This document shows positions 24,298-59,729 of a stretch of 64,000 bases of DNA, piece after piece. The translations under genes were made by a program, and so were the position numbers. The notes under the pieces are model-generated. The model had not been told where the DNA came from. It did no database searches and saw only the letters and a list, made by a program, of their open reading frames with translations. The DNA comes from Candidatus Kerfeldbacteria bacterium (lineage in GTDB: Bacteria > Patescibacteriota > Patescibacteriia > SBBC01 > CAIJZX01). The DNA lies in the NCBI GenBank assembly GCA_903825245.1, contig CAIJZX010000016.1, forward strand, positions 2,100-66,099. Direction: 5' to 3'. Positions within the stretch are counted from its first letter, which is position 1; each line of letters starts with the position of its first letter.

Positions 24298-24298
24298 C

Positions 24299-24330
24299 AC
24301 CTCCATCGTACGACGGAGGTTTTTTGTAAG
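24299..24330 (+). terminator. Rho-independent terminator (CCTCCATCGTACGACGGAGG + TTTTTTG)
   Basis: Stem-loop followed by T-run directly after 23995..24297. Confidence 0.7.
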
Positions 24331-24381
24331 AAAAAACGGCAGGCTCAAAGTCGAGCACTGCCGTTAGAAAAAGATCAAAAT

Positions 24382-25236
24382 CTACAACTGCCTGAACTTG
24401 GCCTTGATGCCATCCACGACATCGTGGAAAGCTGCACTTGAGGTTAGTTCAGGATGCCAGGCCAAGCCCTTGGCTACCATGTCGATCGTCTCCACAATTC
24501 GCGAACCGGGGATCGGATTCCCAGTCGCGTCATGGTCACGCCCGATCAAGAACAGGTGGTCACCGATGGCCGCCGCTGACTCGATGTCGTGGGTGATGAT
24601 GACGATGGTATTGCCACCATCAAGCGCCGCCAACTCCGCGATCAGCTCACAAACACGTGCCTTCGCCAACACATCGAGACCAGAGAACGGCTCGTCCATC
24701 AGCAAGTAGTGCTGACTGCAGAGCAGCTGCTGGGCGATGGCTACCCGCTGACGCTGTCCGCCGGACAACTGCTCCGGAAACACATCGTAGCGATCAGCCA
24801 GACCGAATCGTTCGAGGAGGATCATCGCCTGACTGTGCGACTCCTTCCGTGAAAGACCAGCCTGTTGTCCAGCAATAACCAGGTTGCTAATCACGCGGTG
24901 GTGTTCGAACAGTGGGTAGTCCTGGGCAACAACACCAACCAGGCCACGGTGGACCGGAATTTCCGTTCCATTGTGATGGATGCGAATCGTGCCCGACACT
25001 TTTGCAGCGCGATCCGGCATCCCAGCAATCAACCGGAACAATTGGGTCTTGCCGAAACCAGACGGACCAAGCAAACAGACGATCTGCCCGTGTCCATCAT
25101 TCTTGCGTACCTCCAAATCGAGATCTCGCAAGATGATCTTATTCCCGAACGCCAAGTTGACTTTCTCGAGCGACAGTAGACGCCCATTCGTCGGCACTTG
25201 CGGCTCAGGAATAGCCGTACTCGCGGTCGTGCTCAT
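24382..25236 (-). CDS. ABC transporter ATP-binding protein (NitT/TauT nitrate/sulfonate/taurine family-like)
   Basis: Walker A GPSGFGKT, signature LSGGQRQRVAIAQ, Walker B LLMDEPFSGLD. Confidence 0.85.
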   Translation of the reverse strand: MSTTASTAIPEPQVPTNGRLLSLEKVNLAFGNKIILRDLDLEVRKNDGHGQIVCLLGPSGFGKTQLFRLIAGMPDRAAKVSGTIRIHHNGTEIPVHRGLVGVVAQDYPLFEHHRVISNLVIAGQQAGLSRKESHSQAMILLERFGLADRYDVFPEQLSGGQRQRVAIAQQLLCSQHYLLMDEPFSGLDVLAKARVCELIAELAALDGGNTIVIITHDIESAAAIGDHLFLIGRDHDATGNPIPGSRIVETIDMVAKGLAWHPELTSSAAFHDVVDGIKAKFRQL

Positions 25237-26021
25237 GAGCGCTCCTTCTTCAAGAAGGCATAGGGGGTAACCAGCCGCTTGATGAGTACAATCACGTTGT
25301 CCTGAACAAGTCCAAGCGCCATAACCGAAATCATGATGGCGAGTACTTGCGGGATGTTGAAGTGCTTATTCTCGGCGATGATCATTGTGCCGACACCGCC
25401 CTCACTCTTAACGATTCCTTCGACCATCGGCAGCATCATCCAGCCAATTCCAGCATTCTGCCGGATGGCATCGATGACTTTGTCGAACGTGCCAAGGACA
25501 ACGACTTCCCACGTCACCTGCCACTCATTCATGCGCAAGGTTCGGGCGTAGTCGTAGCGATCATCTTTGACATCACTGACAATATCGTTGATGGAGGTTG
25601 TCAGGAAGACCATGATGGCGAAGATGAGCAAGGCCAACTTCAGCCGATGCCCGCCGCCGAACATCATGGTGAACAGAAACGGCAGACCGACAAAACCCAG
25701 GTAGCGGAGCGTCGTCACGAACGTCACGAACGGCCGCATAACCGGAAGTCTACCTGAATACGCGAAGGCCATCGAGAACACCGACGCCAGGAAAATCGCT
25801 TGCACGAATGTCCAGAAGCTGTTGATCAGTTCCTGACCCAGTCCGTCGTTCATCCACATATCACCAAAGGCTTGCGTCACCTCCAGCGGTCGTGGAATGA
25901 TCGGACTGGCCATGAACAGCCAGTTGAACATGAGAAAGACCAGAACCAAAAGCGTCAGCAAGCGCCGAGCCAATGGACCGACCTCCTCATTCGGATAGAA
26001 CACACGCCAGATTTTGCCCAT
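25233..26021 (-). CDS. ABC transporter permease (binding-protein-dependent inner membrane component)
   Basis: Multi-TM protein, 4-bp overlap with ATPase gene. Confidence 0.75.
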   Translation of the reverse strand: MGKIWRVFYPNEEVGPLARRLLTLLVLVFLMFNWLFMASPIIPRPLEVTQAFGDMWMNDGLGQELINSFWTFVQAIFLASVFSMAFAYSGRLPVMRPFVTFVTTLRYLGFVGLPFLFTMMFGGGHRLKLALLIFAIMVFLTTSINDIVSDVKDDRYDYARTLRMNEWQVTWEVVVLGTFDKVIDAIRQNAGIGWMMLPMVEGIVKSEGGVGTMIIAENKHFNIPQVLAIMISVMALGLVQDNVIVLIKRLVTPYAFLKKERS

Positions 26022-26100
26022 CGATCCTCCGAAAAAGAAAAGGCGCTCAGTTCCACGAGGAACCGAGCGCCATAGGTGAGCTTCAGATCACCTGGCCCAA

Positions 26101-27927
26101 CTACTGCGAGGTGGACTTGAGGACGATCTGCACCCGGCGATTCTTCGCACGACCCTCGGGGGTGTCGTTCGAAGCAACCGGATTCATCTGACCATGTGCG
26201 AAGACTCGGACGCGACCCGCCGGGAAGTTGGTCGGCGAATGCGACTCGAGCCACTGCTGAACGGCGAAGGCACGGGCTTCCGCCAAACGCTGATTGTCCT
26301 GCAGACGCTGATTGGCGTCCGGGGAGCCAGTGTTGTCGGTATGACCATGCACCTCGACGTACGTGCCGCCCGCGATACCCAAATTCTGGATCAGGTCGCG
26401 GAGCACGGATTCGGCCTTGGGCGTGAACGTCGCCTGACCGGAGTTGAACGTGACGTTGTAATCACGATCGCCCACCGTCGCACCGGGAGTTCCAGAGAAC
26501 GTCTCCGGAGCCTCGGCCGGGGTGGGATTGGGGTTCTTGGCCTGGAGATCCGCCACATACGAGACATTGATGACCTCGGACGCGGGCGGAAAACTCGGCA
26601 CCAGGCGCGGATACTGCTGAACCACGATCTTGCCGAACATTTCGTAGGTGGCCTGAACCAGGTTCTGACCACCGGCGCGTTCGAGTCCGAAGACGTGGAT
26701 CGCATCGGACAGGTTGCAAACCGACGAGCCGCCCAGTGACACCGGAATTCCCTGCTTGTCGGGCTGGATGACACCGTCGAAATACTTCAACCAGTATCCC
26801 GCACCCTTGTTCTCGCCGTAGAGCGCGTTCTCGATCTCGGCGGCATGCTGCTTCGCCTGCGGGTAGGCACGAATCTGGTCCGCTGCGTCGTAACTGGCCA
26901 TGAGCATGTTGTCCAAGGTCGTCCGGTTCGCGTCGTCCCACTTCTTGATACCGATAACCACGCACGGCATCTGGTACTTGTTCTCCTTGGTGCTCAGAAT
27001 CGACACCAGGCCGCCCTTCTTCTCGGCTGCCGTCACGTCGCCCGGAGTCCAGGTAGCGATACCAGTGACACCGATCGTCACGGTTTCACCCGTCGGAACA
27101 CCGTTCTTGACGACTTTGCGAGTCTCGGTATAACCGCTGATGTACTTTGCCGCGGCATCGATGTAGTTATCGGCATTGAGCACGTTGATCGCGTCGGGGT
27201 CAAACGTCTTCTCGTCCGGATTGACCTTGAGGCCATTGTTGCCAGCCCAGATCACCAGGATGTTCCAATCCCCATCACGCAGGACGCACGCCACAAGCTT
27301 GCCAATCGCGAGACGCGGATTCGTCAGCCACGCCGGCGGACCCATCAGCTTGTCTTCACCTCGCGAATAGCCGATGACGCCACAGATTTCGGCGATGAAA
27401 TCTGCACCGAACTTCTTGAGCTTCGGATTGATGCCCTGCAGGAACGCTGCGGCACCGTCGCCCATGATGGTAACAAAGTGCACGCCCTCCGTTGGCTGAG
27501 CAACACCCTTATGCATCTCGTCCGCGGTCTTGAGTAGGTCGCTCTGCAACTGGTTGTTGTCGTCCTGACGAGACCAGTGCACATTGACACCGTACTTCTC
27601 CATCAGCGAACCGCGAGTCGTACTCGGGCCACCGATGGCATACAGCAGACCCATCTGCGCGTTCCAGGCATACCCTTCCATCCGGACCTGCGGCCCATTG
27701 ACCTGGGCCGGTTCCGAACTCGGAATGGGCAGCATGGACACCGAGGTAGCAGAACCACCGGCGTTGTCCGACGGCAGATTGACCGCCGACGGAACACTGG
27801 CCGCCGTGTGCTTGGCACCCGGGATGAGACCATGCGTCACGAGGAACTTACCGCCGAATATGACCGCCGCGATGATGAACAGGCCGATCATGATGATACC
27901 GCCAGACTTGGGACCGCCCTGTGCCAT
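26101..27927 (-). CDS. Membrane-anchored fusion protein: periplasmic substrate-binding-protein-like domain + C-terminal OmpA/MotB peptidoglycan-binding domain
   Basis: N-terminal TM; C-terminus …VEVHGHTDNTGSPDANQRLQDNQRLAEARAFAVQQWL…AHGQMNPVASNDTPEGRAKNRRVQI is a clear OmpA-like domain; central region has SBP-like character (lower confidence). Confidence 0.6.
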   Translation of the reverse strand: MAQGGPKSGGIIMIGLFIIAAVIFGGKFLVTHGLIPGAKHTAASVPSAVNLPSDNAGGSATSVSMLPIPSSEPAQVNGPQVRMEGYAWNAQMGLLYAIGGPSTTRGSLMEKYGVNVHWSRQDDNNQLQSDLLKTADEMHKGVAQPTEGVHFVTIMGDGAAAFLQGINPKLKKFGADFIAEICGVIGYSRGEDKLMGPPAWLTNPRLAIGKLVACVLRDGDWNILVIWAGNNGLKVNPDEKTFDPDAINVLNADNYIDAAAKYISGYTETRKVVKNGVPTGETVTIGVTGIATWTPGDVTAAEKKGGLVSILSTKENKYQMPCVVIGIKKWDDANRTTLDNMLMASYDAADQIRAYPQAKQHAAEIENALYGENKGAGYWLKYFDGVIQPDKQGIPVSLGGSSVCNLSDAIHVFGLERAGGQNLVQATYEMFGKIVVQQYPRLVPSFPPASEVINVSYVADLQAKNPNPTPAEAPETFSGTPGATVGDRDYNVTFNSGQATFTPKAESVLRDLIQNLGIAGGTYVEVHGHTDNTGSPDANQRLQDNQRLAEARAFAVQQWLESHSPTNFPAGRVRVFAHGQMNPVASNDTPEGRAKNRRVQIVLKSTSQ

Positions 27928-27950
27928 GGTGAAATCTCCTTCTTTGGGGT

Positions 27951-27964
27951 TTTGGTTTTTGTGG
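27951..27964. promoter_or_regulatory. Palindrome TGACGT-AA-ACGTCA in promoter region of the ABC operon
   Basis: Read from sequence between 27928 and 27987. Confidence 0.3.
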
Positions 27965-27987
27965 ACTATGACGTAAACGTCACGTCG

Positions 27988-29043
27988 CTACTTCTTGTCG
28001 TTCGGATCGTCTGCAAACAAACGCTGGAGGCCTTCGCCGCCAGTCGTCGTCGAACGCGCCGCCGGAACGCGCTCCCGACCATCACGGAACACCGGCAAAG
28101 CCGATGCATCCGAATGCGCCGAGAGCAATCCCTTGACCGCGGTGCTGCGTTCACGCCAGGCCGACAGTGCCTTCTGCCCCTGCTCCGTTCGGAGCTGAGT
28201 AAGCAGATCACCACTGACCATGGCATTTGAGTCCCGAACGAATGAACGGAACTCCGCCAACTTGGTGTTGAAGTCCTCGACAGCCACTTCCGATGCCCGG
28301 TCGTAGAACCAGGCACCAGCAGAACCGCCCGATAGGATGCGCCGCAGGTTCTGGAATGCCTTGTAGGCGCCCCCCATGATAGTGCGCTTCTTGGTGATTG
28401 CTCGAACAAAACTCTCTGCATCAGCGATCTGGTCGCCAACCGCAGTGAGCATCGTCCTGAGCTCTTCCCTTATTTCTTCAAAGACCGTCCGCATGGAATC
28501 GAATTCGTCCGCATTGGCGTTGCGCCGTGTGGCGTCATTCGTCAGAGTTGTGACCTTGCCGGTCTCACCACGTCGTTGCGCGATGTCGGCCAGCTGCATG
28601 TCCTTCTCTGCTCCAGCGCGTTCGTGCGCACTTTCGTCAGCCAGAGTTGTAATCTGGCCTTCGATGACCGATTCCTGCTTTGCTCCATCCGCTGCTTCTT
28701 TCTTCATCTCCTTGACACGACTCTCGAGGATCGAGATCGGATCGAGATCGATGAAACCCATGGCAACAAAACGCACGAGCGACTCGAAGACGTACCGAAC
28801 GAGGGTTCGGAACCGAGGATTAGCGACGAGCAGAAGGATGGCAACGAGGATACCACCGAGCCAGGCCATGTGAACACCGGTCAAAAGAATATCGACCAGC
28901 GTCGGACCGAGCTTCCACAGAAGCAGGAGTCCAGCCAGGATAGCAATAACCAGTCCACCCTTGGCGAAATTCTTCTCTGGTCGCTGCCAGATGGACTTGA
29001 TAGAACTGCCAGTCGAGACGACCGGCAGATTTGAGATACTCAT
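27988..29043 (-). CDS. Hypothetical membrane protein: two N-terminal TM helices followed by long coiled-coil region
   Basis: ORF translation; possible PspA/TelA-like coiled coil (speculative). Confidence 0.5.
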   Translation of the reverse strand: MSISNLPVVSTGSSIKSIWQRPEKNFAKGGLVIAILAGLLLLWKLGPTLVDILLTGVHMAWLGGILVAILLLVANPRFRTLVRYVFESLVRFVAMGFIDLDPISILESRVKEMKKEAADGAKQESVIEGQITTLADESAHERAGAEKDMQLADIAQRRGETGKVTTLTNDATRRNANADEFDSMRTVFEEIREELRTMLTAVGDQIADAESFVRAITKKRTIMGGAYKAFQNLRRILSGGSAGAWFYDRASEVAVEDFNTKLAEFRSFVRDSNAMVSGDLLTQLRTEQGQKALSAWRERSTAVKGLLSAHSDASALPVFRDGRERVPAARSTTTGGEGLQRLFADDPNDKK

Positions 29044-29058
29044 GTCAGCTCCGATCTC

Positions 29059-29679
29059 CTACTTGAGGTAGGGTTCGAGGTTGGCAGCGTCATTCGCCAG
29101 CCGCTTCTGAACAGCGGCAAAAGCGATATCGAAATCCGTCTGCATCTTTGCCGTCTTTTCCTTGCCGGCCTGGATCTGTCCACGCAGCGTCTGCTGCTGG
29201 GTAACCAGGTCGGTGCGCTGCTGCTGCAACTGCGCGAGTTGCGTGTCAATGGTAGCCAGCTGGCTGTCCATCTCCGTAACCCGGCGCTCCTTGCCGCCGA
29301 CATTCTCGTCCGTCTCGGTTTTGAGCCGCTGAGCGAATTCCACCCGCTCGGTTTCGAGCAGTTGAATTCGCGCGGTCAGCGCCGCCTTGATAGCCGGTGG
29401 CGTGTGCCCATGCAACTTCGCCACCATCTGCAGTGCCTTGCTGTTCCGCTTGGCGGGATCGGGAATGTCTTGCAAATCCGTCAGCATGTTCATGAAGTCG
29501 GTGTACGGCTTGGCCGTTCCGGCATCAACGTCATGCATGATTGCTTCCTCGTAGTGACTCGTGTCACCGGTCGCGACAACCGTCGGCGTACTTGCCGTCG
29601 TGGTTGTCATCGGAGTCGAGGTCACTGTCGGCACGCTCGGACGTGGGGTCGAGGGCTGTTCGCCCTTCTCGTCCCCCAA
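29059..29679 (-). CDS. Hypothetical coiled-coil protein with Thr/Pro-rich N-terminus (TTG start or internal ATG)
   Basis: ORF translation; Q/E/L-rich heptad-like C-terminal half. Confidence 0.45.
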   Translation of the reverse strand: MGDEKGEQPSTPRPSVPTVTSTPMTTTTASTPTVVATGDTSHYEEAIMHDVDAGTAKPYTDFMNMLTDLQDIPDPAKRNSKALQMVAKLHGHTPPAIKAALTARIQLLETERVEFAQRLKTETDENVGGKERRVTEMDSQLATIDTQLAQLQQQRTDLVTQQQTLRGQIQAGKEKTAKMQTDFDIAFAAVQKRLANDAANLEPYLK

Positions 29680-29792
29680 ATCCCAAACATGTTCACGGAT
29701 GAATGCCTTGAGCTTAATCTTTGACAGACCGGCGACCTTACACTACTTTTCCATTTTTGTCAAGAGTTAACTCCGTTATTTGGCTAATATTA

Positions 29793-29823
29793 AAGAAAAA
29801 ACCGATTGTTTGTTACAATCGGT
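29793..29823 (-). terminator. Rho-independent terminator (ACCGATTGT-loop-ACAATCGGT + U-run on minus strand)
   Basis: 9-bp perfect inverted repeat at 29801-29823 with A-run 29795-29800 on plus strand. Confidence 0.7.
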
Positions 29824-29833
29824 ATAGTGTGCC

Positions 29834-30073
29834 CTACTTCGGCGACTTGCTGAGCGTCTGCTCGCAAGCGGTCTTGGCCTTCCGCGCGAGGTAGTCGCGC
29901 ACCTGCGTGGCCATCTTCAGACCGTCGTCCCCGAGGCTGCCCAGGAAATTGGCCGTTACGTCGCCGACGTTCTTGGCTGCCTGGCCGGCTTGGTCGAGGT
30001 CGATAGTAATCTTCCCTCCACGCCGCCTGATGAACTTGGGAACGATCTTGGGAGGAGCTGTCTGCTTCGGCAT
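29834..30073 (-). CDS. Hypothetical small basic protein (79 aa)
   Basis: Good SD (AAGGAG-5-ATG); own terminator. Confidence 0.5.
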   Translation of the reverse strand: MPKQTAPPKIVPKFIRRRGGKITIDLDQAGQAAKNVGDVTANFLGSLGDDGLKMATQVRDYLARKAKTACEQTLSKSPK

Positions 30074-30251
30074 TTCGAACTCCTTTGAGGATCTTCCTCC
30101 ACGACCTGGGAGGAATCAGGAACGGGAACCATTCCCGAGCGGGATATCATTACCATCCAATGAAAAAAAAGTCAATATCCAAACTCCGGGGAACAGAGGT
30201 TATTGGCTAATATCAGAATATTTAAAAATAAAAAGTAGCCCTCAGTCAGAG

Positions 30252-30749
30252 CTACGTAGATGTCCGTTCAGCGATCCTAGTTTTTGCTTCAGCCAGCAGT
30301 TTCGCTTCCAATTGACGGAACAGGCGGCGCATGACCAGGAATGCTTCATGATGGGGCGGTGGACCAGCCGGGATACAATACAGCTTGCTTCCTCCTCCCA
30401 TCCACATTCCGATGTGCGTTTGTCCGATGGCTTCGGGCACTTCCATCCGATCAACGCGAACCACATGCGTCAATTTTCTCTCCGTAACATCGAAGACGAC
30501 GCCGTGTCCGGATTCCGGAATGAACTCAATCCAGTTCAGCCAACCGTCCTTTTCCAAATGCCGACGAATGCTCCGAAGCCTCTGATCGGTCTGATCGTTG
30601 CCGATTGTTCCTGGCTGGACGATCATCTGTTGCACCAGCATCGCAAGCGCCACATCGCGACCGACGATAACACTCGCCGCTGCTAGTCCTTCAACGCCCC
30701 ACCGTTGAATCAACCTGCCGGCCGAAAACAAATTCCGTGTGGTAATCAT
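30252..30749 (-). CDS. Hypothetical protein (165 aa), possible permuted papain-like/NlpC-P60-like hydrolase (weak)
   Basis: Strong SD (AAGGAGG-4-ATG) at internal Met; ORF track start 30995 is an extension; His…Cys arrangement (THIGMWMGG…YCIPAG) only suggestive. Confidence 0.45.
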   Translation of the reverse strand: MITTRNLFSAGRLIQRWGVEGLAAASVIVGRDVALAMLVQQMIVQPGTIGNDQTDQRLRSIRRHLEKDGWLNWIEFIPESGHGVVFDVTERKLTHVVRVDRMEVPEAIGQTHIGMWMGGGSKLYCIPAGPPPHHEAFLVMRRLFRQLEAKLLAEAKTRIAERTST

Positions 30750-30823
30750 GCTACCTCCTTGGGAAAGAACCGCGGCAACCTTAGTACAGGCGCCTCGGAC
30801 TGTCAATAACGAAACAGCGAGTG

Positions 30824-30862
30824 TTACTGCTTCCCTTCGCGTTTCCGCACGTTGGCGTCGTG
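30824..30862 (-). repeat. Degenerate duplicate of the bipA 3' coding end (encodes …HDANVRKREGKQ* vs authentic …[12 protein letters not shown])
   Basis: 30-bp core TTCCCTTCGCGTTTCCGCACGTTGGCGTCG at ~30831-30860 vs TTCCCTTCGCGTTTCCGCAAGTTAGCATCG at ~31838-31867; in-frame with its own stop. Confidence 0.7.
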
Positions 30863-31067
30863 TTAGTACTTTCTGCAACGAATATTGTACATTCATTACA
30901 AGTTGAAGATTAACGCGACTACGCCCGACTCCGTGTTTGTTGGCAGTGTTTTTGTTTTGCTTTTCCAGCACAACTAGCCTTGACAGCATACTCAACCCAT
31001 GTTTGAATGGGCAACTCCTGTCTTAAGGAGCGTTGCTCTTCACAATACTCACCACTATGGAGGTCGA

Positions 31068-31805
31068 ATGTTCCCACTCAACGTGGCTCTCATCGAGGAG
31101 CGCCTCGGGCTGAGCTTCAGCCGTCCAGAGTACTGGCACTATGTATTCTTCGATGAGGCGGCGGATGGCACACCCCCTCCAACTCACCTGGGACAGCAGG
31201 TACTCGCCTACCGAGGTGATAAGGTCATCGATCTGGTCATCGCCGACCACTTCGTAGAACACTACCCGGACCACCGCGATCAGCATGGGCTGTGGCGCAG
31301 TGGCCTCGCCAGCAATGCCGCCTTTCACAAAATCTTGGAGGACCGTGGCGTCCTGATGATCGTTCGACAAACCCAGCACCAACGGGTATTGCTGGGAATC
31401 AAACACGGCGGCACGATGTTCGAAGCCATGATCGCCGTTCTCTATACTGAACATGGACTGGAGTTCGTGCGAACGTATCTGCACCAGACACTGCTGCCCT
31501 GCATCCCGGACGTCATCACGAACGCCTGGAATGAATTCCCGGCCATGCGGTTGAACGCCCTTTGTGCGCGCCATTTTCGAGCCTCACCTGATTTCCAGTC
31601 ACTCGGCTTGGCTGGTAGTCGGCAACGGCAAGCCTTCGCTGTCCGTCTGACGATTTCCGGAGTACTGAAAATCGACGGCTACGGACGAAATCCAGAAGCT
31701 GCCAAGGCACGCGCCATCAGTGACGCCTTCGACATCCTCCGCCGGCGCGGTATTGACGTCAATGCTCAACCGCAGATCGTCCTAGCGATGAACCGCACTT
31801 CGTAA
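31068..31805 (+). CDS. RNase III-like protein with degenerate catalytic signature and C-terminal dsRBD-like region
   Basis: N-terminus LIEERLGLSF… matches RNase III start; signature ERLEFLGDA replaced by VLAYRGDKV; SD GGAGG-5-ATG; GC-rich. Confidence 0.55.
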   Translation: MFPLNVALIEERLGLSFSRPEYWHYVFFDEAADGTPPPTHLGQQVLAYRGDKVIDLVIADHFVEHYPDHRDQHGLWRSGLASNAAFHKILEDRGVLMIVRQTQHQRVLLGIKHGGTMFEAMIAVLYTEHGLEFVRTYLHQTLLPCIPDVITNAWNEFPAMRLNALCARHFRASPDFQSLGLAGSRQRQAFAVRLTISGVLKIDGYGRNPEAAKARAISDAFDILRRRGIDVNAQPQIVLAMNRTS

Positions 31806-31827
31806 CCCGAGGTGCTTTTTTCTTCGC

Positions 31828-33645
31828 TTAGTTTTTCCCTTCGCGTTTCCGCAAGTTAGCATCGAGCTGTCGTTTGCGAATGCGTACCGAAGCTGGTGTC
31901 ACTTCCACAAATTCATCAGCGCCGATATATTCCAGAGCTAATTCCAGTGACATCGTTTTCGGCGGTGCTAATAAAATCGCGGCATCAGAGGCCTTCGAAC
32001 GCATGTTCGATAACTTCTTTTCTTTACAGACATTAATTTCCATATCCTCATCGCGAGAATTTTGGCCGATGACCATGCCAGCGTAGACTTCGACACCTGG
32101 AGCAATAAACAACGTTCCTCGTTCCTGTGCCGTATCAAGGGCGTAACCAGTACTGGCGCCGTTTTCAAAAGCAATCAATGAGCCGTGGGTATTGGCGTTA
32201 ATCAAGTCTGGTTGATACGGTTCGTACTTATTGAATAGGTGATTGACGATCGCCTGGCCGCGACACTTCGTCATCAACGCTGATTTCAAACCAATCACGC
32301 CGCGCGTCGGCATATCATATTCGATATGAAGTTCGCCGGTCGGCGTGGTGTCGATCGAGAGTAAACTTCCCTTACGAACACCGCACTCTTCGATAATCAT
32401 GCCCTGAAATTCACCCGGCACGTCAATCGAGACGAGTTCGTACGGTTCCATTTTAACACCGTCTTTTTCGTGCATGATGACTTGCGGTTGCGAGACTTGC
32501 AATTCAAAACCTTCGCGTCGCATCTGCTCGATTAACACTGCTAAGTGCAATTCGCCGCGACCGGAGACGAGGAAGCTGTTTTCATTTTCCGTTTCTTCAA
32601 CGCGCAGCGCCACGTTCGTTTCCAATTCTTTCATTAAGCGAGCTTGAATCTGCCGTGATGTCACCAACTTGCCTTCATTACCGGCAAACGGCGATGTGCT
32701 AACACCAAACGTCATTTGGACAGTCGGCTGGTCGACTTCGACCGGTGGCAACTGCTTCGGATTTTCTGCGTCAGCAATCGTTTCGCCGATAGCAATTTCA
32801 CCCAATCCAGCGACGGCCACAATTTCTCCGGCTTCAGCCGTTTCCACCACCACTTGTTTCAGACCTTCGTAGACCATAATATCCGTCACCTTGCCTTTGA
32901 CGATTTTTCCATCTGTTTTAATCTCAGCGACCGGTTGATTCTTTGAAATTTTCCCGGCAGTAATTTTCCCGATACCCATCTTACCTTTGTAGTTGTCGTT
33001 CATTAACGCTAACACCAGTATCTGTAATGGTTCGCTGACGTTTACTTCCGGAGCGGGGACTTTGGCCACAATCGTTTCAAATAATGGCGTTAAATCGGTG
33101 CCTGGTTTTTCATGATCCAAGGTCGCGGTGCCAGCAATTGCCGACGCGTAAACGATAGAAAAATCGAGCTGTTCGTGCGTCGCATTCAAGTGTGAAAACA
33201 AATCAAAGGTTTTATTCACCGCTTCATCGGGATCGGCGTCCGGTTTATCGATTTTGTTAACGACAACAATCGCGTTCAAACCGAGTTCGAGTGCTTTTCG
33301 CAACACGAATTTCGTTTGCGGCATCGGACCTTCTTTCGCATCAACCAACAGCAAGACACCATCCACCATGCGGAGGATGCGTTCGACTTCACCACCGAAA
33401 TCCGCGTGGCCCGGCGTATCGACAATGTTGATCTTAATGTCGTTATAGACGATTGAGGCGTTTTTGGCACGAATAGTAATGCCGCGTTCGCGCTCCTGAT
33501 CCATCGAATCCATAATCCGCTCGCCCATTTGATCGAGGTTTCGAGCCGAGTGGGTTTGCTTCAACATGGCATCGACCAAGGTCGTTTTACCATGGTCAAC
33601 GTGGGCGATAATTGCAATATTGCGGATGTTATTTCTGCGTTCCAT
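31828..33645 (-). CDS. typA: Translational GTPase TypA/BipA
   Basis: G-domain [23 protein letters not shown]; full-length BipA architecture. Confidence 0.95.
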
Positions 33646-46530: not shown

Positions 46531-46984
46531 TGACAGACCACTAGATGACTAGGGTTCATCGCGCAAGCGGTGGATTCAGGAAAGTCCGAACACCGTTGGT
46601 GCGCGCAAGCGCATCATCATGGAGAGTCGCTAACGGCGACCGGGAGTACGATTGGCGTGAATCTGGGTATACCATTTACGTCAGTACGAAGCCCAGGGCA
46701 CCCCGCAAGGGATCGAAGAGTGCAACAGAAACATACCGCCTATGGCGCGTTTACGCGTCAGGTAAGGTTGAAATCGTGAGGTAAGAGCTCACGGCTGGCA
46801 TCGGTGACGATGTCGGCGGGCAAACCCTCTCCGGTGCAAGATCGCATAGGCTCTCAGTCGCAAGACTGTAGGGCGGGTAGATTGCTAGAGCGTTGCAGCA
46901 ATGTAACGTCGAGAGAGATGGTCATCAGATCGGTAGCTACGGCTATCGACGAACAGAATTCGGCTTATCGGTGGTCTGTGCAGA
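46531..46984 (+). ncRNA. rnpB: RNase P RNA (bacterial type A-like)
   Basis: Conserved blocks GGAAAGTCCG…, AGTGCAACAGAAACATACCGCC…GTCAGGTAAGGTTGAAATCGTGAGGTAAGAGCTCAC…, ACAGAATTCGGCTTATCGG; P1 pairing AGACCAC/GTGGTCT; overlapping ORF-track ORFs (46545.., 46893.. N-term) are spurious. Confidence 0.8.
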
Positions 46985-53382: not shown

Positions 53383-53689
53383 GACAACGGGATAAGCAAA
53401 ACGACGACACCTACCTCCCCACGGTTTAGACAATATTTGTGGCGTTCTTTGTATTCAACAAGGTATGTATGCAGAGGAATCCTGTCTGCAACCCCTCCTT
53501 CCAGCGCACTGGAAGGAGGGGTGTTGACGACAAAGCTGTGCATGACGTTCTTGATGACAGCAATTTTACGTCCAAAAATGATGAAAACGACGGGGAGGTA
53601 GGCGCTTTCAAAGTGCTATTTATCCACACCTTTTTACCCTAATCTTAGGGAAAATCCAACCTTGCGGTCGGAGGCGGTATTGACATTTT

Positions 53690-53718
53690 CGGAGGCGGGG
53701 AGTATCATGCTTAGTCAA
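53690..53718 (+). promoter_or_regulatory. Strong sigma70-like promoter TTGACA-17-TATCAT
   Basis: Hexamers at 53690-53695 and 53713-53718. Confidence 0.55.
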
Positions 53719-53724
53719 CTTAAA

Positions 53725-54249
53725 AAAGCACCTTCCAATCTCGGTCCGAATTGCCAGGAGTTGTGTCGATATAAGTCGCTACAACCCCTGGCGATTCATT
53801 GCAGTCGGTTGGCCACCGAGCGTGTCTCGCACTAGGGGAAGTTACAAGTAACTTCAGCGAAGCGGTAGTACGCAACACGACGCGGTGGAACAAACAGACT
53901 GTAGCACTCGGAGCACTCGCTGGTGGAACACCCGCAGCACACTGGTTGCACCGAAGCACTCCGGAAGTACCGATTCACCGCGCGGTGGTCGGAGAAGTCC
54001 GATACGTAAACCTGACCGCAGTACCTAGCAGTACGTGGCAGAACGGTGGGGGAGTTGAAAGACGTTTCATCTCTCCCACCCCATTTCCCGAATACATCTC
54101 AAGTGAGGTGTCGTCAGGAAAGGATGCACCATACAATTCATGTCAGAACAATCGTTGAGGAGCGAAAGTTCGACATAACAAACTGTTCATCCATAAAGGG
54201 TGAGGTCTGTTGTCGACGCGCGTCCACAACAAGCCTCACCTTTTTTGTT
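53725..54249 (+). ncRNA. Candidate ~530-nt noncoding RNA (promoter-to-terminator transcript without credible ORF) in GC-rich island
   Basis: Bounded by promoter above and a strong intrinsic terminator; internal ORFs (53799.., 54046..) lack SD and look compositional; internal short repeats (GGTGGAACA, AGCACTCGG/AGCACTCCGG). Confidence 0.4.
54199..54249 (+). terminator. Rho-independent terminator (GGTGAGGTCTGTTGT…ACAACAAGCCTCACC + TTTTTTGTTT)
   Basis: Long GC stem followed by T-run. Confidence 0.75.
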
Positions 54250-54393
54250 TGGCCCTCCCCTTGATAAGGGGAGGTGAAGGAGGGGTGAGGAGGACAGGCA
54301 CCGCGGCCAGCCGCCGTGTGTTGTTGGTTGCGGAACCTGTCCTGACGAAACGAAGGTTGATCTCTAACGCGCTAAAAGCGCACGGAGAATACC

Positions 54394-54747
54394 ATGTTCA
54401 ATACGTTCGTCGTTGTGGCACTGATCTGCCTCATCATCTGGAACCTGATCCAGCGCAACCAGATCAAGCATCAGGAAATGGTCATCGAACGCATCAAGCA
54501 CAACTCGGCGGCGTTCGAGATTCGAACGATGGCCATCGACTACTACCGCGAACACGGCACTTGGCCGACCATCAAGGAACTCCGAGTGGATCGTGACATG
54601 GACAGTCTCGAGTGTACGCTCTGGGCAGACTGGCAGATCAAGGCCAGGTTCGAGAAGAACTATACCAAGCAGTGGCTTCTCGAGATCTGGATCCCAGGTG
54701 CGAATGTCTGCCGCATCTTTCACACCGGTATTCGCACTGCCGCGTGA
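54394..54747 (+). CDS. Hypothetical membrane-anchored protein with pseudopilin-like motif (…AIDYYREHGTWPTIKEL…)
   Basis: SD GGAGA; N-terminal hydrophobic helix; weak similarity to GspG/type IV pilin core. Confidence 0.45.
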   Translation: MFNTFVVVALICLIIWNLIQRNQIKHQEMVIERIKHNSAAFEIRTMAIDYYREHGTWPTIKELRVDRDMDSLECTLWADWQIKARFEKNYTKQWLLEIWIPGANVCRIFHTGIRTAA

Positions 54748-54891
54748 GCAGCACCTTCTACACCGCAACACAAGTTACGGTGAAGGCTATGACTACGGTC
54801 TGGCCTCTCACTCGAACGCTTCAGCTTTAGTTGGAGAGTTCAAGTGAGGATAGTCAGTAGCCAGCACCGTCACATTCGAAAGGAGTCAGTC

Positions 54892-55221
54892 ATGTCCTCT
54901 GCTGTGAAGCAGGAGAAGGACTACACCACGTGCCTTCGGCTGCACGTGTACGAGGTTCCGGCCGAGAGCGAGATCGCTAAGATCGCTTCTCGGACCATCA
55001 TCCACGCCGTTCCCGAGGACAAGTGCCTGGCCTGCATCAACGAACGACTGCACGACCTCCGGCACGACGCTGAGTTGGACGATCTGTGCCCAATCGATCC
55101 TGATCAGCCGAACGGCTGGGCACTCGACGCGGACGATGCCGAGAAGCAGTACGAGGACGTCCGACGTCTGTACGTGACTGAAGTGGACCACGAGTACCGA
55201 CTCATGCCGGATCTCAGCTAG
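54892..55221 (+). CDS. Hypothetical acidic Cys-containing protein
   Basis: SD AAGGAG; internal Met start. Confidence 0.45.
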   Translation: MSSAVKQEKDYTTCLRLHVYEVPAESEIAKIASRTIIHAVPEDKCLACINERLHDLRHDAELDDLCPIDPDQPNGWALDADDAEKQYEDVRRLYVTEVDHEYRLMPDLS

Positions 55222-55622
55222 AGCAACAAGAACAAGGCCGTGAGCGGATATCGTTCACACGAGTAAGGAGCCTATATACAATCCTTACTCAGCTGTCTTC
55301 CGATGTGTATCGGAACTGATGAGCTCGAAAGAGCGAAACAGCATAGAAGTACATTACATATATTCGAAGAACGCACAGGGAGGGGAGAGCACTCGTTGTC
55401 GGACGGCCACAAGCATGGACGACACGAGCCGCGGTCAAGCAGTAGTCAAGGAGGTTTCGACTTCCGACACCATTGCAAGACAGCATATGACGATAGGGTG
55501 AGCTTGTCTCACCACAACTACCGTTCGCTTGCCTCCCGATGTGTTCTTCGAACATTCCGGTCACCACGACCGAACCCGACCGTGCACGGGTTGACAATGC
55601 GCGGACTGCCAAGGAGGCGCAG

Positions 55623-55787
55623 ATGTGCATGTCGCATGAGCTGGCCAGCCGCATTGCGGAACTTCATCTTCATGGTCGGGCTGACCATCTTCCTCAAGAA
55701 ACGGTCAGCCACGCACTGGAACTGGCGTACGGTGGCAACGCACCGAAGCCGCTCTCCTGCGAGATCGACAACGCCCAGGCCGCGTAG
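55623..55787 (+). CDS. Hypothetical small protein (55 aa)
   Basis: SD AAGGAGG-6-ATG. Confidence 0.35.
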   Translation: MCMSHELASRIAELHLHGRADHLPQETVSHALELAYGGNAPKPLSCEIDNAQAA

Positions 55788-55972
55788 CGGCACGTAACAA
55801 AGTACCTCGGGGTCAACGTTTTCCATACGTTGACTCCGAGCCCTTACTCGAGCATTCCTATCAATTGGATGACGGAAGTCCCAAGCGACGAAATGCTCAA
55901 GTAAGACCAACGACAAACATCAATGCTTGACATATCAAGTACCACTCAACCATCACCACGGAGGGCAAAATC

Positions 55973-56137
55973 ATGTTCCCGTATGCCTTGGCTACCGTGC
56001 TGTTGGTGCTGACGATTTCGGTCGGCATCGCACTGATCAAGAGGCAGAAGTCGCTGTCGGGTCCTTCGAACGAGAACGCACTCGCGTCGAAGCATCCGGA
56101 GTTCAAGAACTTCAACCGCCGCAGTCGCATTCGCTAA
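55973..56137 (+). CDS. Unlisted small membrane protein (54 aa, MFPYALATVLLVLTISVGIALIKRQK…)
   Basis: Not in ORF track (<60 aa); SD GGAGGG-7-ATG; strongly GC3-biased codons; single TM. Confidence 0.4.
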   Translation: MFPYALATVLLVLTISVGIALIKRQKSLSGPSNENALASKHPEFKNFNRRSRIR

Positions 56138-56183
56138 CGATCGTCGGTCACATCCAACAACACTTCCAACCGGAGGTACTGTC

Positions 56184-56612
56184 ATGAAGCAGGCTCTGCT
56201 GGATCAGATCAAGGCGATGGAGCAGTACGTCACCAACGTGTTGGGTCCGAAGTTCCTTCTGGACAGCGCGGCTCACGAGGCCGAGCTGAACGAGTTCCTC
56301 GGTACGGTCAATTTCCAGCGCGGTGGTCGGCTCGGTCTGCTGTACGACGAGCGTGATCTCGAGCTGTGGACCGAACGGCTGCTGGAGAAGCCGATGACCA
56401 CGAACGTCACGATCGGTACGTCCGACATCAAGTTCCTCGGCACCGAGCACACGGCCAAGCGGAGCCGCACCTGCAAGGGCAAGCGGTTCAAGAACAAGCC
56501 GCGTGAGCAGCACCGTCCGAAGCCCCAGCCGGCGAAGGACAAGAACGAGTTCAAGAAGGAGATGGAGAAGCAGCAGCGGACCAAGAAGCGCGGCCACCAG
56601 CAGGCCGCCTAG
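56184..56612 (+). CDS. Hypothetical protein with highly basic C-terminal tail
   Basis: SD GGAGG. Confidence 0.5.
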   Translation: MKQALLDQIKAMEQYVTNVLGPKFLLDSAAHEAELNEFLGTVNFQRGGRLGLLYDERDLELWTERLLEKPMTTNVTIGTSDIKFLGTEHTAKRSRTCKGKRFKNKPREQHRPKPQPAKDKNEFKKEMEKQQRTKKRGHQQAA

Positions 56613-56885
56613 TTTCCAAGCGCCTATCCTTCAACGCCACCCAATTCGTGGGACGAAGAACCGCGGATGTGGGAACAAGAAAGGTGGTGAGTACGATTCG
56701 ATTATGTACCTTCTGAAGCAAAAAAATCAGAACAGCGCGTGACAACGTTGCTGTTCGGGAGAGAAGCTCGATCTTCTCTCCTCCTGTCCGAGTTGACGAC
56801 AACGTCGTCGATTCAGACAGGGGTACCTCAGTATTCCGCAGTCGCTCTTGAAAACTTGTTACTCACTTCCATACCGGAGGTTACC

Positions 56886-57266
56886 ATGCTGCGCACGCTG
56901 TTGCTAGCAACTTGCTTGGTGGTTCTCGGCATGATGTCAACGTCGTGTATCACCGAACCCCAGAATCCGAACCTCGCATGTCTGGTCGGTGTCCACAACC
57001 TCACGAACCAGCCGGCGGCGAAAGTCGTCATTGACGGCGCAGTGGTGATGCGGAACCTTCGTCCCTACGAAGAATGGGTGCTTTCCGGAACCTACATGAC
57101 CGGCTCGTACCATACCTTCGAGGTCTTCACCACGGACACGATCACATCGTCGATTCGATGTAACTTCAGTGTTCCGTGGCATGTCCGCTATACGTGTGCA
57201 AGCACGGCGGTTGCGGTGTATATCGCCGTCAATCCGACCAACGGCGACTACCGCATAAGTGAGTAA
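56886..57266 (+). CDS. Hypothetical secreted/lipoprotein-like protein
   Basis: SD GGAGG; signal peptide with Cys. Confidence 0.5.
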   Translation: MLRTLLLATCLVVLGMMSTSCITEPQNPNLACLVGVHNLTNQPAAKVVIDGAVVMRNLRPYEEWVLSGTYMTGSYHTFEVFTTDTITSSIRCNFSVPWHVRYTCASTAVAVYIAVNPTNGDYRISE

Positions 57267-57275
57267 GCCCAAAGG

Positions 57276-57355
57276 GGAACGCGGACATGGAATGCTCATG
57301 TTGCGTTCCCTGCTTCACTTGAGTTATGCATCACGTATGAATGACTCAAGCGAAG
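57276..57355. repeat. Two-hairpin intergenic element copy 1 (GGAACGC-loop-GCGTTCC; CTTCACTTGAGT-loop-ACTCAAGCGAAG)
   Basis: Paralogous to 58053-58129 with compensatory stem changes. Confidence 0.55.
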
Positions 57356-57435
57356 ATGCACCTTACATATTGCTCTGAAATTTACAACGTTTTTAACGTT
57401 GTTGTTGCAATTCACCCCAGCAAACGGAGAAGCCG

Positions 57436-58038
57436 ATGAAAGGCATGATGCTGATGATGCTGTGTGTCCTGATGTTCGCCTCGGCGGCAACCGCGCAGAC
57501 GACGGAAACCATCCACCCGACGACCAGTATTGTCTCGGTCTGGAACGAGTACCAGACGACTGATGGTGGCTTGGACAATTTCAATGTCTGGGCCAACGTT
57601 TGGCCGAGCGATGGGAAGTTCGGGTTCTACCTGTACACGCAGGGTGCTCAGCCTTCGTTCACGCAGACGTACGGCGGTCCGGCTGTTCGCATGTTCGACG
57701 GTCAGTTCGAACTCGGCGCTGGACTCGGTGTCGAGAACGTCGACGGCAACGTCGGTCTGCGGCGATCTGTGTACGGCATCGTCACCCACCAGAAGTTCTC
57801 GAGTGCCAACTGGTACGAGAGCTCCAGGAACAGTGGGTGGTGGTTCCTGACCCAGGACATGTACTCGGTCACGCCGACGCTCGAAGCCGGTTACCGTCTG
57901 CAGCGTTTCCTCGGTGGCGGTCCCATGGTCCGCTATACCGCAACGTTCAAGAACTGGGCGTTCCAGCCTTACGGCGCGGCGCTATACGACGGCGATCGTT
58001 TGAACCCGATCCTCGGGTTCTCGATGACGCACAAGTAG
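57436..58038 (+). CDS. Hypothetical secreted beta-rich protein (outer-membrane-protein-like)
   Basis: Signal peptide MKGMMLMMLCVLMFASAATAQ; alternating aromatic/Gly beta pattern. Confidence 0.5.
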   Translation: MKGMMLMMLCVLMFASAATAQTTETIHPTTSIVSVWNEYQTTDGGLDNFNVWANVWPSDGKFGFYLYTQGAQPSFTQTYGGPAVRMFDGQFELGAGLGVENVDGNVGLRRSVYGIVTHQKFSSANWYESSRNSGWWFLTQDMYSVTPTLEAGYRLQRFLGGGPMVRYTATFKNWAFQPYGAALYDGDRLNPILGFSMTHK

Positions 58039-58052
58039 TTCAGAGCAATACA

Positions 58053-58129
58053 GGGCAGGGCATCATGAAGCTATGATGTTCCTGCCCGCTTCACTTGAGT
58101 GCTGAAAAAAATCAACATTCAAGCGAAGC
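58053..58129. repeat. Two-hairpin intergenic element copy 2 (GGGCAGG-loop-CCTGCCC; CTTCACTTGAGT-loop-ATTCAAGCGAAG)
   Basis: See copy 1. Confidence 0.55.
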
Positions 58130-58205
58130 TCAGTCGAAAGATTGCGCTTCCGATCCTTACAACTTGCTACAAGTTACACAATACCTCAACCACGGAAGGG
58201 AAGCT

Positions 58206-58859
58206 ATGCGCTTCGTTTCTGATGCAGACCGTAAGGAGCTTGAGGCCTTGATGTTGGCCGACCTCTATTACATCCAGGCACAGGAAGACAACCAGCGCTG
58301 GTATGAAGCACTGGGGAGCACTCAGTCCGAGCAGGACATGCTGGGCACTGTCAATCGCGTCACCAACATGATCGGCAGCGAAACCGCTGACGAGCTCGAC
58401 GATCTGTACGAGTTGAGCAGGATGGTCGAGAGCAACGACGACACCATCGTTTACATCGACGAACGCCACCAGCTCGGCTTCGCTCTGTACTATCGTCGGG
58501 TCAAGTTCATCCACGGCCTGCCGGTCATGACGAAGCGCCAGCGCCATCCGTATGACGGTTCGTGCCGCTACGCCAAGCTCCATCACGACAACAAGATGTA
58601 TGATCGCGAGCGTAAGCTCGAGCATCTCCGCCGCTGGCAGCCCGAAGATCTCGACGAGGTAAATGACCACGACGAGGATTCGGACATTCTTTCGGCAGGC
58701 GAGCTCGTCGCCGAAGACCTGCGCGAACGTGAACGTGATTGGGCGATCGACGAACTCATCGGCAGTGGCGCGGAGTATTACGACGATGAATTCGAAGATG
58801 ACGAGACCGGCCCATACGTCGGTTACGGCAAAAATCGTTCGTACCACACCAACCCGTAA
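58206..58859 (+). CDS. Hypothetical acidic protein
   Basis: Internal Met with SD-like GGAAGGGAAG. Confidence 0.45.
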   Translation: MRFVSDADRKELEALMLADLYYIQAQEDNQRWYEALGSTQSEQDMLGTVNRVTNMIGSETADELDDLYELSRMVESNDDTIVYIDERHQLGFALYYRRVKFIHGLPVMTKRQRHPYDGSCRYAKLHHDNKMYDRERKLEHLRRWQPEDLDEVNDHDEDSDILSAGELVAEDLRERERDWAIDELIGSGAEYYDDEFEDDETGPYVGYGKNRSYHTNP

Positions 58860-58873
58860 GAAAAGGGGATCAC

Positions 58874-59440
58874 ATGAATCGAATCCTGTTGATCGCGGCG
58901 ATGTTCTGCATCCTGCTCGCTACGGCGGTGCAGGCTGCTCCGGACACGCTGAAGGTGCACCTGAACGGTGGCCAGCCGATGCTGGTCACGACTGAGGATA
59001 TGCCGGCGTCGACGTACCGTTTGACCGACCAGCGAGTCGATCAGATCGTCGATCACTCGGTCAAGACAGCGCTCACTGCTTCTCGACCGCGCATCGTCTA
59101 CCGCTATCGGTATATCGCGACCGAACCGATGGTCATTCACGACACGACCGTCGTGGCCGCGCCGTTTACCTGGTGGCAGTCGAACCATATGGGGTCCATT
59201 CCGGACTGGTTCTGGCCGCTGTTTACCGTCGTGGCGCTCGCGGTGCTTCTCGGTATCGCGCTGGGCGGCGGTCTCCGCGATCGTCCCGGACGTGACGGTC
59301 GGGATGGACTTCCGGGTCGTGACGGAAGGGACGCGATGTCGGAAGCCACTGATTCGCCGATGTTGCGACTCCAGTATCTGCCTGAGGGCACGGAGATCAC
59401 GATCAAGCGCGATCGTCCTCCTGTTGTTCCGAAGACGTAG
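58874..59440 (+). CDS. Hypothetical secreted protein with TM helix and short collagen-like GRDGRDGLPGRDGRD tract
   Basis: Signal peptide, SD AAAAGGGGA. Confidence 0.5.
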   Translation: MNRILLIAAMFCILLATAVQAAPDTLKVHLNGGQPMLVTTEDMPASTYRLTDQRVDQIVDHSVKTALTASRPRIVYRYRYIATEPMVIHDTTVVAAPFTWWQSNHMGSIPDWFWPLFTVVALAVLLGIALGGGLRDRPGRDGRDGLPGRDGRDAMSEATDSPMLRLQYLPEGTEITIKRDRPPVVPKT

Positions 59441-59729
59441 TTGTAGCAAGCGGTTCCGGTGGTGCATTGAGCCTTACGCTCGGTGCACCACCATCTTTCT
59501 CGAAACTTTCAGCAAACTGGAAGTTTCAAGCAAGGTAGCGCTGACTCATTGACATCGCAATATACTTGGCTAACACTATACGTGTTGGCGGCAACTCTGG
59601 CTTCACTAGTGACGTTCGTACACAGTAACGATGAATGTCCTGCCTCTGGCAGGCTCCTCCATTCGTTGATGCGGCGTGCGAACCCCTCCTGGTGGAGCCG
59701 GAGTTGTTTTGTATTTGGTTTACTTGCAA

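Follow-up and report, generated by a model that had tools for sequence, protein, structure and literature searches.

Tandem hairpins at the gene-unit boundaries of a variable envelope-gene island: candidate punctuation for intercistronic mRNA

The chromosome of an uncultured Candidatus Kerfeldbacteria bacterium contains an island of small genes whose unit boundaries carry a recurrent structured element. The window (the whole stretch of DNA analyzed, 64,000 nt of contig CAIJZX010000016.1) holds six or seven copies of this module, found by an inverted-repeat search and a motif scan. Each consists of two stem-loop structures: hairpin A (hpA), variable and GC-rich; and hairpin B (hpB), which abuts it and whose stem is interrupted by an A·C or C·A mismatch. 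Nine further modules occur on short metagenomic contigs that encode relatives of the island's gene 7 protein. The reading put forward here, tentatively and with somewhat less than even confidence, is that the modules are intercistronic mRNA punctuation, with hpA as a 3' stabilizer and hpB as a processing signal.

Two of the modules, w1 and w2, were described in an earlier note made from sequence alone. Both are present where that note placed them, with the sequence it described. The hpA stems read GGGAACGC/GCGTTCCC in copy 1 and GGGCAGG/CCTGCCC in copy 2. The hpA loops are indeed similar, but they are not open: they pair internally (ACATG/CATGT, CATCAT/ATGATG), which extends hpA into a longer hairpin with interruptions. 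Between the copies, the hpB arms differ at a single base (A[C/T]TCAAGCGAAG), confirming a conserved stem; the 19-nt loop reported for both belongs to w1, that of w2 being 16 nt. A shared 13-mer, GCTTCACTTGAGT, has exact matches in the window only at w1 and w2. Both modules fold far better than expected on the + strand (z-scores of −5.2 for w1 and −6.7 for w2), and none of 200 shuffles folded equally well. However, two elements is too low a count. The family has at least 16 members, from about five lineages.

The general anatomy is simple. The hpA structures share no conserved sequence; their stems are 7–17 bp long, with predicted free energies (dG) from −10 to −33 kcal/mol. In nearly all modules hpB begins 0–2 nt past hpA. 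It comprises an outer stem of 4–8 bp, the mismatch, an inner stem of 4–12 bp that varies from module to module, and a centre of 3–56 nt. The outer 5' arm is 91% pyrimidine across 14 elements. The arms read CTTACT-C-GAGCATT...AATGCTC-A-AGTAAG in module w3, CTCACT-C-GAAC...GTTC-A-AGTGAG in w4, and CCTGTC-C-GAG...TTC-A-GACAGG in w6. The hpB-like hairpin of w0 has its C·A mismatch past an 8-bp outer stem. The modules lie only at unit boundaries, 7–144 nt past stop codons, with hpA invariably preceding hpB. No module separates gene pairs that overlap or that are spaced by 14 nt or 46 nt, which makes the bounded units one or two genes long.

Covariation was evaluated in a MAFFT alignment of ten sequence-related hpB copies. 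Altogether 84.7% of the cells pair, versus 70.4% in shuffled alignments, and both sides have changed in 12 of the 18 pairs. The covariation score of 0.456 (0.185 in shuffles) was reached by none of 500 shuffles; it drops to about 0.1 once partners are slid by 1–3 columns. One column pair is unpaired in seven of the ten sequences (C·A in six), and a second in five (A·C in three). The pairs beside the mismatch change on both sides: CTCGCT/AGCGAG, CTCACT/AGTGAG, and CTTACT/AGTAAG. Selection on module structure is thus supported by sequence comparison. The earlier note had reached this conclusion from covariation in stem A, an argument that does not hold in that form: the two hpA stems are unrelated sequences, not homologous covarying columns, and what is kept is a hairpin at an equal position. 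This is conserved structure rather than classical covariation.

Which strand is selected? Each hairpin of 17 modules was folded on both strands. For hpA, the summed free energy is −329.8 kcal/mol on the coding strand versus −282.7 kcal/mol on the opposite strand (a gap of 47 kcal/mol), and G·U pairs number 19 versus 2 (binomial p = 2e-4). Because hpA G·U pairs are almost confined to the coding strand, it can be inferred that the coding-strand RNA is the selected molecule. By contrast, the two strands of hpB are nearly equal in both free energy (−438 vs −433 kcal/mol) and G·U pairs (32 vs 29). There is no net difference because the coding-strand G·U pairs are offset by the mismatch, which turns into G·U on the other strand. 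The pyrimidine bias of the hpB 5' arm is a second orientation-specific feature. Finally, hpA is almost free of A·C (hpA vs hpB, Fisher p = 0.0017). Since hpA tolerates almost no A·C and the hpB mismatch stays at one height, the mismatch is most simply read as maintained by selection on the coding-strand RNA and not as neutral drift. The hpA bias in G·U pairs and free energy, together with the hpB pyrimidine bias, overturns the earlier statement that no strand inference is supported. Likewise, the A–C mismatch in stem B, formerly thought to carry no strand information, is positionally conserved in the coding-strand RNA.

Searches for further copies, as the earlier note had proposed, found the same build elsewhere in the island and in related metagenomic islands. 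A loose descriptor (an A/C-mismatch hairpin preceded by any hairpin) was nonspecific, with 34 matches on the + strand of the window and 29 on the − strand, and was therefore replaced by a covariance model. This model (also a proposal of that note) was built from the ten-copy hpB alignment and run unfiltered over the whole window, on both strands. The five training copies in the window score 42–52 bits, and w6, which was absent from training, is the best new match (16.9 bits, E = 0.06). Outside the island, the remaining 57 kb of the window yield no significant match (best score 13.9 bits, E = 0.3). Exact hpB arms found one match in IMG/VR and three among GTDB genomes, all in coding sequence and ascribed to chance. 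Arms of the type in contig L008 gave 19 IMG/VR matches, about the chance expectation and mostly coding (L014/L023, L017, and L024 looked non-coding). No additional island emerged from the genome and metagenome scans. Rfam searches with the modules returned no relevant match at E ≤10 (961-nt search) or E ≤5 (6.5-kb search); the comparison covered the twister, twister-sister, pistol, hatchet, and hammerhead families, and the modules match none of them.

The modules on related contigs are distributed as follows: one on L007; three on L008; three on L030 (one the counterpart of w0); and three distinct modules on L031, L032, and L035. The L030 island occupies the same chromosomal position as the window island, beginning past the same DUF4012 gene. 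The two share a promoter-like site, a small-RNA-like core, a terminator, an hpB-like hairpin, and a structured RNA. Their gene content differs, and L030 lacks about 1 kb (genes 1 and 2 plus junction elements) directly after the window's first hpB-like hairpin. The w0 orthologue, at L030 1923–1982, has an entirely different outer stem sequence with the C·A mismatch at the identical position. The w3 hpB has an orthologue, loop included, at L030 3230–3296, between unrelated genes. L031 and L035, which are closely related, have the same hpB arms around a loop that has diverged. Eleven contigs of the same strain, from the same population, show no rearrangement; they are identical to the window except for one base outside the modules.

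One junction is different. After gene 2, the second hairpin is a perfect stem with no A/C mismatch, and a probable hammerhead ribozyme follows. This match scores 36 bits versus the Rfam gathering score of 48.5 (E = 3.3e-6 over 441 nt). It was compared with the hammerhead consensus at the core (C3–A9 and G12–A14), the A15.1–U16.1 pair, H17, and the three stems, with stem III open. Both invariant segments of the core, CUGAUGAG and CGAAAC, and the GUC before the predicted cleavage site agree with this consensus; all three stems are present, although the outermost two pairs of stem III are non-standard. Beyond the hammerhead lies an unclassified structured RNA, RNA X, which is conserved at about L030 1985–2165; the downstream genes differ between the two islands. 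Its consensus fold has 47 pairs, of which 12 have changed on both sides between the two copies, and consists of a long closing helix with three internal hairpins, one bearing a T-loop-like GGUUUCGACU. RNA X has no Rfam match, and its anchors gave one match in a metagenome scan, in coding sequence and by chance.

Promoters and terminators bear directly on function. The island head contains a strong σ70-like site (TTGACA-17-TATCAT, 53680–53708); a weaker promoter-like site occurs at 53554–53582, also in the head, and a further one at 55254–55282, inside the hammerhead junction. No σ70-type promoter was found by scanning the leaders between hpB and the next start codon. Terminators of the host itself consist of a hairpin with at least six T in seven (for example at 54241, 45202, 24320, and 14142), and no module has such a run. 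With neither a promoter match in the leaders nor host-like T-runs, the modules probably do not terminate transcription efficiently, given that the downstream genes would otherwise not be expressed.

The leaders themselves have shared features. The motif G[CT]ACC-N-TACAAY occurs 2–25 nt past several hpB structures; it also follows the hammerhead and opens the small-RNA-like core. It is present in the window at 57359–57370, 58151–58162, 54864–54875, 54126–54137, and 55350–55361; and in relatives at L008 92 and 847 and at L030 1792 and 2765. The strict form has one match over both strands of the window. It may act as a −10-like element of a promoter, or as an RNA signal where units start. Leaders of unrelated open reading frames (ORFs) at window 56822–56885 and L030 3297–3425 share CTCAGTA..CCGC..TCTTGA...ACGGAGGTTAC, and most island leaders end CCAAC(C)..ACGGAGG. 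The untranslated parts are thus better conserved than the genes they flank. (The same shared leader includes a boxA-like stretch, CGCTCTTGA.)

Together, these observations suggest the following scheme. A long coding-strand transcript of the variable envelope-gene island would carry the modules in cis, each marking the 3' boundary of one unit. Stable and sequence-free, hpA would protect the 3' end of the upstream message. The hpB stem would most likely be where a double-strand-specific endonuclease, of the RNase III type, recognizes or cuts the RNA, and the mismatch would set the site; cleavage there would separate the units and leave hpA as a 3' cap. At one junction the self-cleaving hammerhead would do the equivalent job. 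In support, the probable hammerhead follows at the sole junction whose second hairpin has no mismatch. The host encodes an RNase III-domain protein, at 30999–31805.

Precedents exist. In the early region of phage T7, intercistronic hairpins with an imperfect helix are processed by RNase III, and the upstream message keeps a 3' hairpin after cleavage. The plastid intercistronic expression element (PMC2230500) is likewise a hairpin with a helix imperfection between cistrons of a polycistronic RNA. Unlike these, the modules are abutting hairpin pairs with an A/C mismatch and a pyrimidine-rich 5' arm, and their cleavage is proposed by analogy. Bacterial hammerheads can flank single genes or short variable gene blocks, and a role suggested for them is to split long transcripts into gene-length mRNAs (PMC3088659, PMC6765202); those of prophage-like regions (Perreault et al. 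2011, PMC3088659) resemble the modules in that structured RNA bounds small units of variable, mostly unannotated genes. However, the hpA-hpB modules have neither a catalytic core nor a ribozyme match, so any cut in them would need protein, and no integrase or phage gene was found nearby.

Several points weigh against processing at hpB. The evidence is purely comparative: it establishes the architecture, its recurrence at unit boundaries, covariation, coding-strand specificity, the conserved mismatch, and restriction to the island, and the cut, its enzyme, and its site are inferred. RNase III is not known to require an A/C mismatch, and hpB, at 11–20 bp, is at the low end for its substrates. 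The hammerhead link involves a single junction and a score under the Rfam gathering score. The sample comprises about 16 elements from some five uncultured lineages; part of these elements are copies passed down by descent and do not represent separate events. Moreover, G[CT]ACC-N-TACAAY could be an unrecognized promoter, making the units monocistronic and favouring terminators. A bolder version of the processing idea, which must be called doubtful, holds that the A/C-mismatched hpB is an undescribed, specific processing signal that can take the place of the hammerhead and divides a hypervariable island of outer-membrane and envelope genes into gene-sized mRNAs with standard untranslated regions; the cut would be made by a dedicated nuclease or, less likely, by the RNA itself. 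If true, shared untranslated parts could also let ORFs swap between islands.

Termination offers an alternative that is rather unlikely, though not negligible. The modules would be leaky, factor-independent terminators, in which hpA and the C/U-rich 5' arm of hpB stop some polymerases at unit ends; hpB would reinforce termination or insulate the next unit, which would have its own unrecognized promoter. The position just past stop codons and the GC-rich, stable hpA agree with this, as does the L030 hpB-like hairpin that comes after a canonical terminator, and the motif after hpB contains a −10-like hexamer. Two abutting hairpins also form a catalogued non-canonical class, the V-shaped terminators of WebGeSTer (PMC3013805): the second hairpin starts at the end of the first, tens of nucleotides past the stop, with a poor U-tract, and the modules fit by this geometric definition only. 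Against the canonical L-shaped criteria, the hairpin is present and no module has six T in seven; about 7 of 12 pass the lax rule of more than 3 U in a 10-nt trail. The trails are mixed C/U, and rC:dG hybrids are stable, which counts against this reading. In addition, the second hairpin of the modules differs from I- and V-shaped terminators in its conserved sequence, mismatch, and variable centre, in a host that otherwise uses hairpins with T-runs and upstream of genes that appear promoterless. Termination leaves unexplained both the conserved mismatch and the conservation of the hpB 3' arm, which is transcribed past the release point. Recombination is less probable still. Here hpB would be an attC-like site that folds as single-stranded DNA, and the units would be cassettes shuffled by an unidentified recombinase. 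Like attC sites, integrase-less attC clusters, and the DUF1874 motif, the modules recur in consecutive intergenic regions of co-oriented small orphan genes, keep structure over sequence, and have a centre of variable length, while gene content varies between relatives (PMC5737381). Six window modules follow successive co-oriented, promoterless ORFs, and nine more modules lie in related contigs; hpB has conserved ends and an imperfection between its outer and inner helices; and gene 7 homologues have different neighbours in L007, L008, L030, and L031. The gene differences between the same-locus islands, including the 1-kb absence from L030, the w3 hpB kept between unrelated genes, and the raised GC content of the island (55% vs 48%) are also consistent with cassettes. 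However, the hpB ends (CTCGCTCGA.../...TCAAGCGAG, CTTCACTTGAG.../...TCAAGCGAAG, and CCTGTCCGAG.../...TTCAGACAGG) do not conform to the attC core sites R'' (RYYYAAC) and R' (GTTRRRY), and no AAC...GTT pair is found at the stem base. The modules have no bulged extrahelical bases and no bottom-strand advantage: the hpB strands fold equally well, and hpA has an RNA-type strand signature. Among the larger ORFs scanned in the window there is no IntI tyrosine recombinase and no integrase, transposase, recombinase, or phage Pfam family; the eleven same-population contigs show no rearrangement; and an attC model assigns no role to hpA, which is always there.

About equally improbable is that hpB belongs to the downstream gene as a 5'-untranslated regulatory element, hpA being an unrelated stabilizer of the upstream one. 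Its purine-rich 3' arm, G[CT]ACC-N-TACAAY, and the CCAAC..ACGGAGG leader would then be bound or unmasked to control translation or stability. The shared leaders ahead of unrelated ORFs and the rarity of the start motif elsewhere favour this, but hpB is tied to hpA (0–2 nt) while its distance to the next start ranges from 43 to more than 120 nt, and no island gene follows w5, which ends the island. Very little probability attaches to selfish or neutral palindromic repeats of the repetitive extragenic palindrome (REP), bacterial interspersed mosaic element (BIME), or miniature inverted-repeat transposable element (MITE) type, spread within the island. REP/BIME units of enterobacteria are near-identical and number hundreds per genome; they are transcribed at 3' ends and can stabilize upstream mRNA. 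The modules are likewise intergenic imperfect palindromes, and arms are identical between w1 and w2, and between L8a and L8b of L008. In contrast to such units, the modules are diverse in sequence and, within the window, confined to one 6-kb island, with no significant covariance-model copy on either strand outside it. Exact-pattern scans of the genome and viral collections gave chance-like matches, mostly in coding sequence. Their orientation is fixed relative to the genes, and arms that diverge widely while structure and mismatch are kept are the opposite of recent copies. Least probable of all is a new self-cleaving ribozyme made of hpA and hpB. Modules and hammerhead do occupy the same junction type in one island, and self-cleaving classes with no relationship to one another can occur in the same genomic contexts (PMC6765202). 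Yet the modules offer no conserved unpaired nucleotides or junctions from which a catalytic core might be built, conserve a single mismatch alone outside the arms, have loops varying from 3 to 56 nt, and bear no weak similarity to any Rfam ribozyme family.

Other candidates were tried and set aside. A type II hammerhead across both hairpins was rejected because CUGAUGA and GAAA are both absent; pairing of the hpA loop with hpB in a pistol-like pseudoknot is plausible in w2 only; and a tRNA-like RNase P substrate fails because ACCA follows hpB in w3 alone. An invertible promoter was rejected on account of some loops being just 3–5 nt, and a σ54 or σ70 promoter formed from the hpB 3' arm and TACAAY on account of spacing that ranges from 13 to 27 nt. 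An inovirus or microvirus prophage was rejected too, the island having no replication, assembly, or capsid-sized genes.

Table 1. Features of the island, with positions in the window (hpA and hpB, hairpins A and B).
Feature	Position	Strand	Remarks
Island head	53680..54250	+	Promoter-like site, non-coding stretch, small-RNA-like core, terminator; same parts in L030 1729-1915
Module w0	54253..54343	+	Island start; hairpin 54253-54276, hpB-like 54291-54343
Island genes (nine, small, co-oriented)	54394..59440	+	GGAGG-type ribosome-binding sites upstream of ORFs
Genes 1, 2, 3	54394-54747; 54892-55221; 55623-55787	+	Single-gene units
Module w4	54783..54849	+	After gene 1; weak hpA 54783-54805, hpB 54806-54849
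Variant junction	55241..55344	+	After gene 2; hairpins 55241-55259 and 55261-55290, then probable hammerhead
Probable minimal type III hammerhead	55290-55344	+	Rfam RF00008; predicted cleavage between 55297 and 55298
RNA X (unclassified structured RNA, ~185 nt)	~55368..55548	+	Directly 3' of hammerhead, 5' of gene 3
Module w3	55806..55906	+	After gene 3; hpA 55806-55840, hpB 55842-55906; z −7.2
Genes 4-5	55973-56137 with 56184-56612	+	Two-gene unit
Module w6	56757..56821	+	After genes 4-5; hpA 56757-56781, hpB 56783-56821
Genes 6, 7	56886-57266; 57436-58038	+	Single-gene units
Module w1 (copy 1), hpA	57276..57310	+	Starts 9 nt past gene 6 stop codon; interrupted hairpin, dG −18.1 on +, −14.6 on −
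Module w1, hpB	57312..57356	+	CTTC-A-CTTGAGT...ACTCAAG-C-GAAG, A·C mismatch; covariance model 43.7 bits
Module w2 (copy 2), hpA	58053..58087	+	14 nt past gene 7 stop codon
Module w2, hpB	58088..58129	+	Arms as in w1; 16-nt loop
Genes 8-9	58206-58859 with 58874-59440	+	Two-gene unit
Module w5	59458..59536	+	After genes 8-9, island end; hpA 59458-59492, hpB 59493-59536; 51.9 bits

The window as a whole is bacterial chromosome of about 48% GC, with RNase P RNA at 46533–46983. The island, at about 53.4–59.7 kb, is 6.3 kb long and lies between a polysaccharide-synthesis cluster ending in the DUF4012 gene and, on the other side, murJ and lepA. In its head, the conserved small-RNA-like core (54126–54194) reads GCACCATACAATTCATGT..GAAC..CGTTGAGGAGCG..GTTCGACA, with a hairpin loop that shows GAGGAG; a canonical terminator at 54195–54250 ends the head. 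Compared with L030, the window has about 360 extra non-coding nucleotides between promoter and core, including an hpA-like hairpin (54045–54080) and an apparent half hpB (54080–54126; 12.6 bits with the covariance model).

None of the island genes belongs to a credible Pfam or PHROGs family: none reaches a Pfam gathering score, and weak matches have E ≥0.004. At their N termini, several have a signal peptide, a lipoprotein signal, or a membrane segment. Gene 7 encodes a signal peptide followed by a confidently predicted 12-strand outer-membrane β-barrel (predicted local distance difference test score, 84), which resembles the KdgM, NanC, and OmpG porins in Foldseek comparison. From this predicted barrel, the host appears to have an outer membrane. 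Five gene 7 relatives were found among 5.8 billion proteins, every one on a short contig, and none in IMG/VR; a protein homologue search with gene 8 returned no relatives. The product of gene 9 carries a signal peptide and a membrane segment, together with a short collagen-like repeat, GRDGRDGLPGRDGRD.

Further observations concern the surrounding chromosome and the metagenomic contigs. Despite its apparent outer membrane, the host also encodes a sortase (1176–1853). The adjoining 2170-residue ORF (1831–8343, − strand) contains a 300-nt internal direct repeat (2938–3237 and 5401–5700, 76% identity), and probably encodes a surface protein of repetitive type. GC content is raised a second time (0.53–0.59) at 24000–32000, a stretch that includes ABC-transporter genes, an OmpA-family gene, and an RNase III-domain gene. 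A perfect 14-bp GC-rich hairpin without a T-run (53491–53522; ACCCCTCCTTCCAG cgca CTGGAAGGAGGGGT) lies about 110 nt past the stop of the DUF4012 gene, and may be the 3'-end structure of that gene. Independent metagenomic contigs (L037, L039, L040, L043, L009, L010, L032, and L008) repeatedly stop at either module hairpin or at the hammerhead; examples are window positions 55341/55342, 55842, 56778, 58081, and 58090. As the contigs derive from DNA metagenomes, the likeliest cause of such ends is assembly breakage at inverted repeats, and they are not read as RNA ends.

Structured intercistronic punctuation is already known; the version described here, which is not in Rfam, joins two abutting hairpins, the second with a pyrimidine-rich 5' arm, an A/C mismatch at constant height, and a centre that varies freely, and it occurs next to a hammerhead match and RNA X. 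The modules are a compact, sequence-tolerant candidate for separating genes within an operon. The finding also reveals a variable surface-protein locus in an uncultured lineage that appears to have an outer membrane, along with RNA X, a structured RNA of 185 nt that is unclassified. It bears, moreover, on why hammerhead and twister ribozymes of bacteria are placed between functionally uncharacterized small genes. Here, one junction has a probable hammerhead where about six others of its type have a non-catalytic tandem hairpin that conserves an A/C mismatch. If both elements yield defined mRNA ends, then exchanging them would directly test the purpose of such ribozymes.

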